Part shown: positions 55,651 through 58,959 of the stretch, piece after piece
Position numbering within the stretch: the stretch's first letter is position 1
Layout: each line of letters opens with the position of its first letter
NCBI GenBank assembly: GCA_963668625.2
Contig: CAXXKA010000008.1
Coordinates: forward strand, 800,001 to 864,000
Direction of reading: 5' to 3'
DNA: 64,000 bases
DNA from: an uncultured candidate division Zixibacteria bacterium
GTDB taxonomy: Bacteria > Zixibacteria > MSB-5A5 > UBA10806 > 4484-95
Translations under genes and position numbers: made by a program
The notes under the pieces: model-generated
Databases searched by the model: none
Seen by the model: only the letters and a program-made list of their open reading frames with translations
Told to the model about the DNA's origin: nothing

Positions 55651-56985
55651 ATGAGCGACGATACCCCCAAAAACAACCGTCAGGAGCCGGGTAAATTCTT
55701 CCGAGATGCCGGCAAGATTCCCAGCCATTTGAAAGCCTCCACTTTCGATAATGCACTCAGGCAATTCGATCAATCGGCGAAAATACTCAAGCTTTCGGAT
55801 AATCAGATAGCCGTGATAAAACAACCGCGAAAGATTATCGAGGCACAATTACCGGTTCGCATGGATGACGGTCATATCGCGGTTTTCAGGGCTTTCCGGG
55901 TTCAACACAATATCTCGCGAGGCCCGGCAAAAGGGGGAGTACGTTTTCATCAAAACGTAAACCTGGATGAAGTTAAAGCGCTGGCGTTCTGGATGACGTT
56001 CAAATGCGCCGTCGTCGGCATCCCGATGGGCGGCGCCAAAGGCGGCGTGGTGGTGGACCCCCGCCTTCTGAGCGAGGGCGAATTGGAGCGGCTGGCCAGA
56101 CGGTATTTCGCCGAGTTGAGCGCCTCATTCGGTCCTGACAGGGATATTCCCGCTCCCGATGTCAACACCAATCCGCAGGTGATGGCCTGGTTTATGGATA
56201 CTTATTCGATGAATCGGCGTAGCCACATCCCGGCGGTCGTTACGGGTAAGCCGTTGGAAATAGGCGGTTCGTTAGGACGGGAAACAGCTACCGCCCAGGG
56301 CATGGTCTACTGTGTCAGCCAGGCAGCCGAACATTTCGGTTGGGATTTGAGCTCGACCAGTGTAGCAATCCAGGGTTTCGGTAATGCCGGCTCGTTTGCC
56401 GCGAAATTGTTACATCAGGCAGGCTGCAAAATAAAGGCCATCTCGGATGTCGACGGCGCTTATTTCAACGATCATGGTATCGACCCGGATGATGCCATCG
56501 ATTACGTGCGCCGTAATAAAACCCTGAAAGACTACGAAAAACATTCGGATGCCGAACGCATGGACAATGCGATGGAGCTTCTAGAATTGCCCGTGGATGT
56601 TTTAATACCGGCGGCGTTGGAAAACCAGATAACCGAGGAGAACGCACCGCGAGTGAAAGCGAAATTGATCGCGGAATGCGCCAATGGCCCGTGTACACCC
56701 GAGGCGGATGATATCCTTAAGGATAAAGGCGTATTCATCATACCCGATATTTTATGCAACGCCGGCGGGGTGACAGTCTCGTATCTGGAATGGGTACAGA
56801 ACCGCATGGGTTATTACTGGAAACTGGAACGCGTGCAAGAGGACCTCAAAGAGATCATGAATAAAAGTTTTCAGGCGGTTCTCGAAACATCGCTGGAATA
56901 CGAAGCGCCGATGAGAATAGCGGCCTTTATCGTAGCTATTCAACGAGTAGTTAAAGCCTCCGAGTTAAGAGGCCTGTACGCTTGA
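55651..56985 (+). CDS. gdhA: Glu/Leu/Phe/Val dehydrogenase (glutamate dehydrogenase)
   Basis: GPAKGGVRF, GGAKGG, PAPDVNT, QGFGNAG, NAGGVTVSYLEW. Confidence 0.93.
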   Translation: MSDDTPKNNRQEPGKFFRDAGKIPSHLKASTFDNALRQFDQSAKILKLSDNQIAVIKQPRKIIEAQLPVRMDDGHIAVFRAFRVQHNISRGPAKGGVRFHQNVNLDEVKALAFWMTFKCAVVGIPMGGAKGGVVVDPRLLSEGELERLARRYFAELSASFGPDRDIPAPDVNTNPQVMAWFMDTYSMNRRSHIPAVVTGKPLEIGGSLGRETATAQGMVYCVSQAAEHFGWDLSSTSVAIQGFGNAGSFAAKLLHQAGCKIKAISDVDGAYFNDHGIDPDDAIDYVRRNKTLKDYEKHSDAERMDNAMELLELPVDVLIPAALENQITEENAPRVKAKLIAECANGPCTPEADDILKDKGVFIIPDILCNAGGVTVSYLEWVQNRMGYYWKLERVQEDLKEIMNKSFQAVLETSLEYEAPMRIAAFIVAIQRVVKASELRGLYA

Positions 56986-57012
56986 TTCATTAGCTAGTCG
57001 ATTAAAATTATT

Positions 57013-57044
57013 AAGCCGGGCTGATTGATTTTAGCCCGGCTTTT
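57013..57044 (+). terminator. Rho-independent terminator
   Basis: AAGCCGGGCT...AGCCCGGCTTTT. Confidence 0.7.
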
Positions 57045-57171
57045 CTATTTCAGGAAATGATATACCGACTTATAAGGTTCGTATTCGCTACATTTTAGAA
57101 ATACGAACCAAGTGCCGAAACATTCTTATCCAGGACAAGATTATCCTGATCGATTTGGAATAATCATCAAA

Positions 57172-57522
57172 TTATTTTTTCGACCACAGCCCCAGTTGAT
57201 TACCCTCCAGATCAGTGACTACGCCCATATAACCATATTCGGGTGATATCTGGGTTTTCTCTTTTACGATAGCACCACCTATACCTTTGACTTTTTCGAG
57301 TGTAGCCGAGACATCCTCAACCTCGATATAGAATAAGATTCCGGGTTTTTCGGATAATTCGTAACTCTGATCGAATCCACCACCTATACCATCAGGGGCG
57401 GTGAATAGCATATAGTTCCACTCCTTCATCAAATCGAATTTCCAATCAAATAACTCGCCATAAAACTTTTTCGCTTTTTCAAAATCTTTCGAGGGTATTT
57501 CCATATGACAGATACCATTCAT
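57172..57522 (-). CDS. VOC/glyoxalase family protein
   Basis: HMEIP...FYGELFDW...DLEGNQLGLW. Confidence 0.9.
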   Translation of the reverse strand: MNGICHMEIPSKDFEKAKKFYGELFDWKFDLMKEWNYMLFTAPDGIGGGFDQSYELSEKPGILFYIEVEDVSATLEKVKGIGGAIVKEKTQISPEYGYMGVVTDLEGNQLGLWSKK

Positions 57523-57559
57523 AATTACTCCTATGATAAAAGTCTACTCCAAATTTCAG

Positions 57560-58573
57560 TTATCTGTTTGCTAACACAAAGTTAGGGAAATCTTCAAACA
57601 CCCAATTATTTTTCAAGGTGTCATAGATTATTCCCAGTAATTTTCTGGCTGTGGCAATGATAGCCTTACCGCTGCCACGACGGTTTTTTATACGATTGTA
57701 ATATTTACTCAAGTAATGGTTATATCGTATGGCAACAAGCGTACACTGCACCAGTGTAGTCCGACCAATCTTAGAACCACGCTTGGTAATCCGACCATGA
57801 TGCTGAATCTCGTTTGAATTGGAAACTCGCGGCACTACGCCAAAATATGAGGCCAATTTATCTTTGTCCGAAAAATCAGCAACATCACCAATTACCGAAA
57901 GCAACACTGTAGCTGATTTGCTGCCGATTCCTTTGATGCTGGTCAGGTTCTTATGCCCGTTCAACTTGCGACCCTGATCCTCTATCTGTTTGTCCAGCTT
58001 TTTTATCCCCTCATTCAAACTGCGAATCTGATCAACCAATACCTCAAGCTCAACAGAAACAACCTCATCAAAATTCATCTTTAGAACCCGCTCCAAACTC
58101 TTGTTGCTGGAGTAGGCCTCCTTTTTACTCTTGATACCATGATGATTGAGTATGTTGTGTATTTTATTCTTCAAAGCTGTACGTAACTTGACCAGCTTGT
58201 CCCGTGTCCCAACAAGTGAACTGATCTGCGCTTTATCTTTCGTCTTTAATCGGGCTTTCGGCAACATGTCTTTGCTCATAAAATAGGCTAAGTTCCTGGC
58301 ATCGTTTTCATCCGTCTTACTGACTGATGATTTGATTATCTCAAATTTGTTCGGATCGACGACAACAACTCGCTTGACCAAATGCGATATCTCATCAACG
58401 AAATAACGAGTGTTGCCAGTGGCCTCAACCGCTACACAATCCGTCTTTTTTAATCCTCGTTTAAATTCCTTTAGATCCTTTAGCCGATACTCCTTGATCC
58501 TCTCCCGACCACCGGCTGTCAGGCAACACACGGTCAAACTGTTTGTGTGAAGGTCTACTCCTAAGTACCTCAT
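57560..58573 (-). CDS. IS110 DEDD recombinase/transposase
   Basis: YLGVDLH, VEATG, KTDENDA; SIKGIG, YFGVVPRVSNS, AIIATARKL; SD GGAG before ATG 58573. Confidence 0.95.
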   Translation of the reverse strand: MRYLGVDLHTNSLTVCCLTAGGRERIKEYRLKDLKEFKRGLKKTDCVAVEATGNTRYFVDEISHLVKRVVVVDPNKFEIIKSSVSKTDENDARNLAYFMSKDMLPKARLKTKDKAQISSLVGTRDKLVKLRTALKNKIHNILNHHGIKSKKEAYSSNKSLERVLKMNFDEVVSVELEVLVDQIRSLNEGIKKLDKQIEDQGRKLNGHKNLTSIKGIGSKSATVLLSVIGDVADFSDKDKLASYFGVVPRVSNSNEIQHHGRITKRGSKIGRTTLVQCTLVAIRYNHYLSKYYNRIKNRRGSGKAIIATARKLLGIIYDTLKNNWVFEDFPNFVLANR

Positions 58574-58594
58574 CTTCTTGCTCCATTCTATGGT

Positions 58595-58795
58595 TATCAC
58601 TGGAGCAGACTCTCTGTCGGCGCCTACCAAACTCCTATTCAAGGTCTTTGCCTTATGGTGGCAATTCGGTTACAGGTCTGATTAATCTCCTTTACGAGGT
58701 CTGGCCTCAAGCATTCAGTTCAGCCTATAACCTATCCGCTCCAGTTAGAAATTCATTACCGAAGCTCTAACACCAACAGAATAGATTAGCAAGAT
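58595..58795 (-). ncRNA. Putative bridge/seek RNA of the IS110 element
   Basis: Closing stem CTGGAGCGGA/TCTGCTCCAG enclosing two similar stem-loops containing AAAGGAG (target) and ATAGGAG (donor junction). Confidence 0.7.
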
Positions 58796-58959
58796 GCTTT
58801 TATCGTACCATCTCCTTTTCTGAAATTGTTGGTATTAAATTGCCGATCTTAAAATATAAAAATAACCGTATCAGGCAACATGTTTCTGACATCGATATCG
58901 TAAAGTATAATTTTCTTGAATACTTTTTCGGCTTATGGTAGTTATAATATATACAACGC

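Follow-up and report, generated by a model that had tools for sequence, protein, structure and literature searches.

A recently active IS110-family insertion sequence with a probable bridge-type guide RNA and Shine-Dalgarno sequences as its apparent target

Does the non-coding DNA in front of a transposase gene of an uncultured candidate division Zixibacteria bacterium encode the guide RNA of a mobile element, and which sequences would such an RNA read? The question was raised by an initial annotation of the locus, which proposed an RNA of the bridge or seek type with separate target- and donor-binding loops. The DNA studied was a stretch of 64,000 nt (assembly GCA_963668625.2, contig CAXXKA010000008.1, positions 800,001-864,000), which is called the window in this work and whose coordinates are used throughout. 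The evidence described below suggests that the leader is very probably the left end of an active IS110-family element and that it specifies a bridge-type guide RNA for the recombinase, steering insertion into ribosome-binding sites. The features of the locus are listed in Table 1.

Table 1. Features of the insertion sequence and its surroundings (window coordinates)
Feature	Position	Strand	Remarks
Whole insertion sequence	57528..58811	-	1,279 bp + one AGGAG copy = 1,284 bp
Left non-coding end, putatively encoding the bridge/seek-type RNA	58574..58811	-	238 nt; structured part ~58770-58600
337-aa DEDD transposase/recombinase gene	57560..58573	-	ORF and domain matches
Left target flank AAAGGAG, original Shine-Dalgarno sequence of the glyoxalase-family gene	58812..58818	-	Empty orthologous sites
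Restored AGGAG + 5-nt spacer + 116-aa glyoxalase-family gene	57172..57532	-	Behind the element
Left subterminal inverted repeat	58797..58807	-	Overlaps candidate -10 TACGAT (58807-58802); TG at 58810-58809
Right subterminal inverted repeat	57532..57542	-	Arms covary in relatives
Right-end motif GGAGTAGACT	57541..57550	-	Holds candidate -35 TAGACT (57546-57541); complementary to P1 3' strand
Closing stem P1, 5' strand CTGGAGCGGA	58735..58744	-	Columns 95-102 with 332-339: 96.2% paired, 6/8 compensatory
Closing stem P1, 3' strand TCTGCTCCAG	58600..58609	-	Also complementary to right-end motif, 57550-57542
Loop 1 apical hairpin GAGG-ccaga-CCTC	58696..58708	-	Columns 129-133 with 178-182: 100% paired, 4/5 compensatory
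Putative target guide AAAGGAG + AU, loop 1 3' strand	58685..58693	-	Identical to left flank + element bases 1-2
Loop 2 apical hairpin AAGG-caaaga-CCTT	58641..58654	-	Columns 230-234 with 272-276: 97.9% paired, 3/5 compensatory
Putative donor guide GCCA, loop 2 5' strand	58659..58662	-	Complementary to element bases 5-2 (TGGT)
Putative donor guide AUAGGAG, loop 2 3' strand	58632..58638	-	Last two right-end bases + AGGAG

The element and its insertion sites

The gene that follows the leader was confirmed as an ORF for a compact enzyme of 337 amino acids, as had been annotated. The protein matched the domain models PF01548 (51.4 bits, cut-off 29) and PF02371 (78.4 bits, cut-off 21.3) as well as NF033542, named 'IS110 family RNA-guided transposase' (243 bits, cut-off 140), and it could be aligned to the IS621 and ISCro4 transposases in the PDB. 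Residues D7, E50, D88 and D91 coincided with the DEDD motifs of IS621 (GxD, EATG and KTDxxDA), and serines were found at and beside the position of the serine in the IS621 ESG motif, with a register that is uncertain by one residue. A phmmer comparison with the IS621 protein gave E = 2.7e-12, the aligned part being chiefly the C-terminal domain, and identity to the IS4321 and IS5075 transposases was 25-26%.

A DNA search detected 11 copies of the element in its own genome, and alignment of their flanks defined the ends. The element starts with ATGGTACGAT at 58811 and ends with TTTTATCAT at 57533, with AGGAG flanking it on both sides. These five nucleotides, within which the crossover would lie, are common to the element end and the target and are assignable to neither. 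Terminal inverted repeats are absent, and there is no target duplication beyond the common core; insertion is site-specific, the same flanks being found at all 11 sites. The non-coding right end comprises 27 nt plus AGGAG, as against 238 nt for the left end upstream of the transposase gene, and GGAGTAGA motifs are repeated within the 1.28-kb element.

A single base varies between the 11 copies (58524), and the reading frames are open in every one of them. In public contigs from the same organism the element was represented by one unitig of 1,290 bp (57528-58817) with a depth of about 51, compared with 4-8 in the flanks. A search of 30 related genomes, of which two belong to the same genus, did not find the element. 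The near-identity of the copies, the collapsed unitig and the absence from the related genomes indicate that it arrived recently and has multiplied since. Judged by its sequence, it is a small, recently active insertion sequence of the IS110 family. In contigs of two runs (X1 and X2), at a depth of 8.6-12.7 and with a short side of 21 nt, a joint was seen that leaves out 56 nt (58569 to 58626) where the transposase gene begins; its source may be another element or organism.

The copies are preceded by [A/T]AAGGAG in all cases (AAAGGAG in nine, TAAGGAG in two) and followed by AGGAG-N5-7-ATG, the next ORF being at least 116 aa long in nine of the 11. It follows from these flanks that the element sits in the Shine-Dalgarno site of a gene, in the same orientation as the gene, and that a new AGGAG stands at the old spacing. 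Orthologues of the glyoxalase-family gene behind the copy in the window were found in one genome of the same genus and one of the same order; in both they are preceded by an uninterrupted AAAGGAG-N5-ATG, with a single AAAGGAG each. The host genome has 862 [A/T]AAGGAG sites, and about 275 of them had an ATG 4-10 nt behind before insertion. All 11 insertions are at ATG-followed sites, for which the chance, given a background of about 0.32, is 0.32^11. At two loci of this genome (L007 and L008) the ORFs behind the element are only 39 and 34 aa long; these ORFs are small genes, or else the sites merely resemble Shine-Dalgarno sequences and have no real gene behind them. Further downstream, a G+C-rich hairpin with a T run (57002-57049), located behind a glutamate-dehydrogenase-like ORF (55651-56985), looks like an intrinsic terminator; its match to a snoRNA in Rfam was at chance level only.

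For comparison, 80 related loci were collected from species-representative genomes of many phyla (52-64% protein identity). An ATG was present 4-12 nt after GGAG in 65 of 72 distinct right flanks, and a single lineage, with CACGGAG in guide and flank alike, accounts for four of the seven exceptions. In this lineage, found in Acidobacteriaceae genomes (L068, L070, L073 and L080), the guide is ACACGGAG, the elements are located behind CCACGGAG, and CACGGAG recurs just downstream. The lineage is a case of natural retargeting away from Shine-Dalgarno sites. The initial annotation had described the enzyme as a candidate reprogrammable recombinase; of such reprogramming, only natural retargeting in relatives was seen. 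Four relatives (L012, L029, L085 and L089) were found as contigs of 1.1-1.3 kb bounded by the element ends; such end-to-end contigs are collapsed repeats, and therefore those genomes, too, have many copies. On the whole the flanks suggest that the element is aimed at the Shine-Dalgarno sequences of its host's genes, a point absent from the initial annotation.

A conserved leader RNA and its putative guides

The predicted fold of the 238-nt leader has an energy of -80.5 kcal/mol (z = -5.15), and none of 200 shuffled sequences folded as well. The leaders of 39 non-redundant relatives from many phyla were aligned and analysed with RNAalifold and by pair counts. The consensus structure consists of a closing stem (P1), a first stem with an internal loop and an apical hairpin, and a second apical hairpin. 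In this structure 93.6% of the cells were paired and compensatory changes occurred in 23 of 36 pairs, a value not reached in 500 shuffles (the sequences are related, so shuffle tests of this kind overstate significance). With slid partners as a control, pairing fell to 33-50%. The annotated stem CTGGAGCGGA/TCTGCTCCAG, which encloses the two loop units, was also recovered by a repeat search. A search of Rfam gave nothing relevant at E values up to 10. A basal stem for loop 2 (columns 223-228 with 288-293) was considered and rejected; these columns were paired in 80% overall, but column 224 was paired with its partner, column 292, in 14 of 38 sequences only. For this reason columns 223-226 were read as a guide, and the stem was reduced to columns 227-228 with 288-289.

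Both of the units described in the initial annotation are present, each a hairpin followed by a short box: GAGG-ccaga-CCTC-gt-AAAGGAG, whose box (58693-58687) equals the target flank plus core, and AAGG-caaaga-CCTT-ga-ATAGGAG, whose box equals the donor end plus core. Across the 39 relatives the fold is conserved and the loops covary with the flank and the donor ends, which backs both boxes as guides and, with them, the proposed division into a target and a donor loop in the 5' RNA of an IS110-family element.

The target guide is identical to the left flank and the first two bases of the element, so it would pair with the bottom strand. Identity between guide and flank at 74 insertion sites was 0.84 at position -7, 0.97 at -6 and 0.99-1.0 at -5 to -1, with the chance level of 0.24 at -8, and the two bases that follow agreed with element bases 1 and 2 at 73 (0.99) and 74 (1.0) of the sites. 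The variable positions -7 to -5 matched exactly in 33 of 39 elements, compared with 13.6 in shuffles, a count that none of 5000 shuffles reached (subject to the same overstatement). Seventeen elements have variant guides (AGAGGAG, TTAGGAG, CACGGAG, AATGGAG, GAAGGAG or TAAGGAG), and in 14 of these the element's own flank is identical to the variant. Mismatches at -7 to -5 were seen with three of the 17 variant and three of the 22 majority guides, at -7 in all cases except one (L050, at -6). In eight elements the first two bases are AC and not AT, and in each of these the guide is followed by AC. An unbiased scan of all RNA columns against all flank and end positions gave as the top non-trivial combinations column 184 with flank position -7 (LT-7) and column 192 with element base 2 (RD2), both by identity, and column 224 with base 4 (RD4) and column 226 with base 2, both by complementarity.

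In all 39 elements the sequence on the 3' side of loop 2 is that of the right end, as ATAGGAG with CATAGGAG (35/35) or as ATGGGAG with CATGGGAG (4/4). The four elements of the latter type form one clade and thus represent few independent events; this makes the covariation support for the right end thin. At the left end the support, from bases 2 and 4, is strong: G-N-C-N on the 5' side of loop 2 pairs with element bases 5-2, column 224 is paired with base 4 in all 39 elements (C:G 17, U:A 14, U.G 6, G:C 2), and column 226 is paired with base 2 in 36. The role of guide for this end had been assigned to ACCAT, which does precede the second unit (58659-58655), but the covariation places the guide in GCCA, 3 nt upstream. 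The ACCAU register was rejected on the ground that it sets C opposite A at base 4 in 10 of 39 relatives, a position at which the GCCA register pairs throughout.

A second target guide, for which a weak match had been claimed, was not detectable: no register stood out, either in the column-by-position complementarities of 37 elements or in those of 69 distinct sites anchored on the hairpin. Diffuse positive scores for a right-flank guide look like the effect of shared base composition. Comparison of the two bases after the donor guide with right-flank bases 1-2 gave z values of only 1.7-2.1 in the relatives. In the host genome the first right-flank base is T at nine of 11 sites, in agreement with the U after the donor guide, which hints at some reading of the right flank. 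The core GGAG is invariant except in one clade, so that pairing with the core is inaccessible to covariation. A CUCC segment (columns 51-54) was tried as a guide for the core and rejected, as it follows the GGAG changes of the RNA itself while the DNA core stays GGAG.

In the mechanism that we consider most plausible, transcription of the leader would yield a guide RNA some 170-200 nt long. In complex with the DEDD recombinase of 337 aa, this RNA would base-pair with target and donor DNA and so hold both. The AAAGGAG-AU sequence in loop 1 would read the target, and the two guides of loop 2 would together recognise the abutted ends of the excised circle. Recombination within the common AGGAG would insert the element downstream of the Shine-Dalgarno sequence and ahead of the start codon, co-oriented with the gene, and would leave an intact AGGAG at the original spacing before the host gene. 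For binding of the RNA by the protein, the circular intermediate, strand exchange and use of the junction promoter, we infer from work on IS621, ISEc11 and ISEc21 that they would proceed in a similar way.

Alternative explanations, ends and junction

It could be argued that the leader is merely a 5' UTR which controls translation of the transposase, that its boxes are ribosome-binding or decoy sites combined with a CUCC/GGAG switch, and that the protein itself picks the site. AAAGGAG and AUAGGAG do indeed resemble Shine-Dalgarno sequences, and a role in ribosome binding could account for part of their conservation. There is also competition between GGAG and CUCC: an upstream GCUCC segment (columns 51-56) can pair with the GGAG of the P1 5' strand (columns 93-98; both within ~58765-58742, minus strand) and does so in 91%, and P1 closes in 96% (columns 95-102 with 332-339), and therefore two mutually exclusive helices are possible. 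(The CUCC of the closing stem could also reach the Shine-Dalgarno sequence of the transposase gene itself.) However, a decoy box need not track the flank, yet the variant boxes do in 14 of 17 elements, one of them being CACGGAG, which is not Shine-Dalgarno-like. Nor would such a leader call for the agreement of the post-guide bases with element bases 1-2 at practically every site, or for a column 224 that pairs with the element end in all relatives and with its RNA partner in a minority. We regard the 5' UTR explanation as highly improbable. The element ends, the 11 insertion sites, the conserved fold and the covariation of the guides with flank and ends are observed facts, and swapping of guide boxes reportedly redirects insertion of ISEc11, ISEc21 and IS621. 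The question is different if the guide RNA works as proposed and the preference for Shine-Dalgarno sites comes mostly from selection, that is, if the element inserts at any [A/T]AAGGAG and the gene-sparing insertions survive. The detection of a 7-nt target guide only, with no guide to the right flank, fits with this, and an element that landed inside a gene would not persist. Of the [A/T]AAGGAG sites in the genome, about two thirds have no ATG behind them, and none of these is occupied. The possibility is compatible with the main explanation, as it concerns only whether recognition or selection accounts for the 11 of 11, and the T/U agreement at the first right-flank base speaks against it as a hint of some right-flank reading. 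We consider a predominant role of selection almost an even choice, leaning slightly against it.

The right end gives rise to a further reading, which concerns the form of the RNA. A motif, GGAGTAGAC, located 13-25 nt from the end, is complementary to the P1 3' strand in at least seven of nine positions in 32 of 39 elements, and in 35 of 39 the complementarity of an element's own motif exceeds that of others. Counted by eye, the P1 3' strand begins with a base that pairs with the final base of the motif in 30 of 32 elements, with all four Watson-Crick pairs represented, and the P1 5' strand is mismatched at the covarying base in 14 of 32. This complementarity suggests alternative folds and perhaps, at low odds, an RNA that spans the junction of the circle. 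In such a case the functional RNA of the circle would start in the right end and cross the junction, the motif would close it with the P1 3' strand, and the P1 5' strand would pair with the upstream CUCC, as the 91% pairing of that segment allows, so that circle and integrated copy would fold differently. Against this, the motif overlaps or precedes the conserved -35 box and would thus lie outside a transcript from the junction promoter; relatives whose ORF extends to the end (L063, L067, L077, L081 and L035) lack it, as does L015; its distance from the end varies; and an inverted DNA repeat would yield the same covariation. A junction-spanning RNA seems unlikely. It would be a bolder step, and one we rate as quite improbable, to view the clade as a circular permutation of the IS1111 plan, with the recombination site between the end of the transposase gene and the RNA gene, an RNA gene closed by the right-end motif and complete only in the circle, and integrated copies transcribed from host promoters and folding differently. 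If it were true, the enzyme would be tipped to excision or to insertion by the two folds, an RNA-level answer to the directionality problem that has been studied structurally for IS621. The idea that the P1 3' strand is kept for pairing with the GVD codons of the transposase gene found no support, since synonymous sites vary freely there.

Returning to the bridge-type guide RNA and the ends on which it would act, the subterminal repeats are 11 nt long and 91% complementary (10-11 bp with one mismatch), and 10 nt lie between their arms when the ends are abutted. Joining the ends generates the promoter-like sequence TAGACT-N17-TACGAT with an extended TG, located where it had been annotated; the 17-nt spacer is made up of 8 nt (TTTATCAT), 5 nt (AGGAG) and 4 nt (ATGG). 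A -35-like hexamer with at least four of six matches and a spacing of 16-19 nt (mostly 17-18) was present in 35 of 39 relatives, with a mean of 4.59 matches as against 2.78 in shuffles. The -10 hexamer in the left end matches in 3-5 of 6 positions and is preceded by TG in 32 of 39 relatives. The bases of the candidate promoter double as bases of the inverted repeats. A promoter rebuilt across abutted ends is described for the IS110 family in PMC11208160 and PMC11187229; the candidate junction promoter of our element, conserved as a motif, would fit these descriptions. In the integrated copy a simple scan revealed no promoter-like site on the strand of the element. Host promoters may drive the integrated copies, as every copy lies in a host 5' UTR in sense direction. 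Among the public runs listed, none is recorded as RNA. In Logan contigs of four runs no join of right end to left end was found; such contigs drop rare forms and are thus silent on circles.

Two peculiarities of the right end were seen in relatives. In six of them (L035, L063, L065, L067, L077 and L081) the transposase ORF reaches the end of the element, with its TAG stop codon within the CATAGGAG terminus. At the right junction of L026 the last 16 nt of the right end (to CATAGGAG) are tandemly doubled before the host ATG, as if a stump of a second recombination event had been left there.

Relation to known systems and significance

The element shares with IS621 and the IS110 group (Durrant 2024, Hiraizumi 2024) the DEDD recombinase, an RNA encoded upstream in the left end and the two loops. 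As described in PMC11208160 and PMC11208158, the bridge RNA of IS621 has separate internal loops for target and donor, and either loop carries guides to both strands; handshake dinucleotides adjoin the 3' guides, and two target guides are used. In our element the 2-nt extension behaves like a handshake guide, and a promoter motif, here a candidate, is likewise rebuilt across the abutted ends. The protein is distant from that of IS621, the order of the guides is inverted and a second target guide is not detectable; moreover, the subterminal repeats have 10-11 bp where those of IS621 have 2-3 bp, both loops are enclosed in a long stem, and the target is apparently a Shine-Dalgarno sequence. Read on the opposite DNA strand, the layout becomes IS621-like, with a short guide on the 5' side, a 3' guide of 7 nt extended by a 2-nt handshake, and CT as the candidate core, so that the recombination site would be inverted relative to the RNA gene in comparison with IS621. 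From the handshake position we infer that the core is CT (AG on the transposase strand).

Other features resemble those of the IS1111 type (ISEc11, ISKpn4, ISPa11, IS5075). Siddiquee 2024 (PMC11187229) gives subterminal repeats of 11-13 bp with terminal extensions of 7 + 3 bp for this type, and a seekRNA in which the complement of the top strand is 5' of that of the bottom strand. Our element has subterminal inverted repeats, the 10 nt between its arms equal the total of 7 + 3, and the guide order is the same, with GCCA 5' of AUAGGAG in the donor loop. It differs in having somewhat shorter repeats and a non-coding region that precedes the transposase gene; the usual IS1111 layout is that of IS5075, with ~250 nt of non-coding DNA downstream and a short left end. 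The combination of subterminal repeats with a 5' RNA, stressed in the initial annotation, is real and unusual, but it is not without precedent, as the same source mentions a few exceptions to the IS1111 layout, e.g. ISMtsp17.

IS900 and IS901 of Mycobacterium avium have already been reported to insert, in one orientation, between a host gene's Shine-Dalgarno sequence and its start codon (Doran 1997, Inglis 2003, as cited in PMC2942039). These elements, too, belong to the IS110 family, the likeness to ours being that of the insertion sites. The IS900 transposase gene opposes the target gene, and its protein has about 400 aa; in our element, unlike in IS900, transposase gene and target gene are co-oriented. 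We found no publication linking bridge RNAs to Shine-Dalgarno targeting in a literature search of article texts; the supplements of the bridge and seek RNA papers, with target motifs for thousands of elements, may already include this clade. The accessible part of 10.64898/2026.10.21.760802 does not discuss such targeting by bridge RNAs. In terms of mechanism, the element is a variation on what was described in 2024 and not a new kind of system.

The sequence that this clade reads occurs in hundreds of copies in every bacterial genome, and insertion leaves the host gene with its ribosome-binding site; this may account for both the spread over many phyla and the 11 intact copies. Bridge and seek RNAs are under development as programmable recombinases, and natural variants reveal which parts of the design can change; the clade appears to manage with one 7-nt target guide and a 2-nt handshake. 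For annotation, the finding explains 11 repeats located immediately before genes in this genome. For the family, the clade mixes features that separate IS110 from IS1111 and is thus relevant to the question of how one type gave rise to the other.
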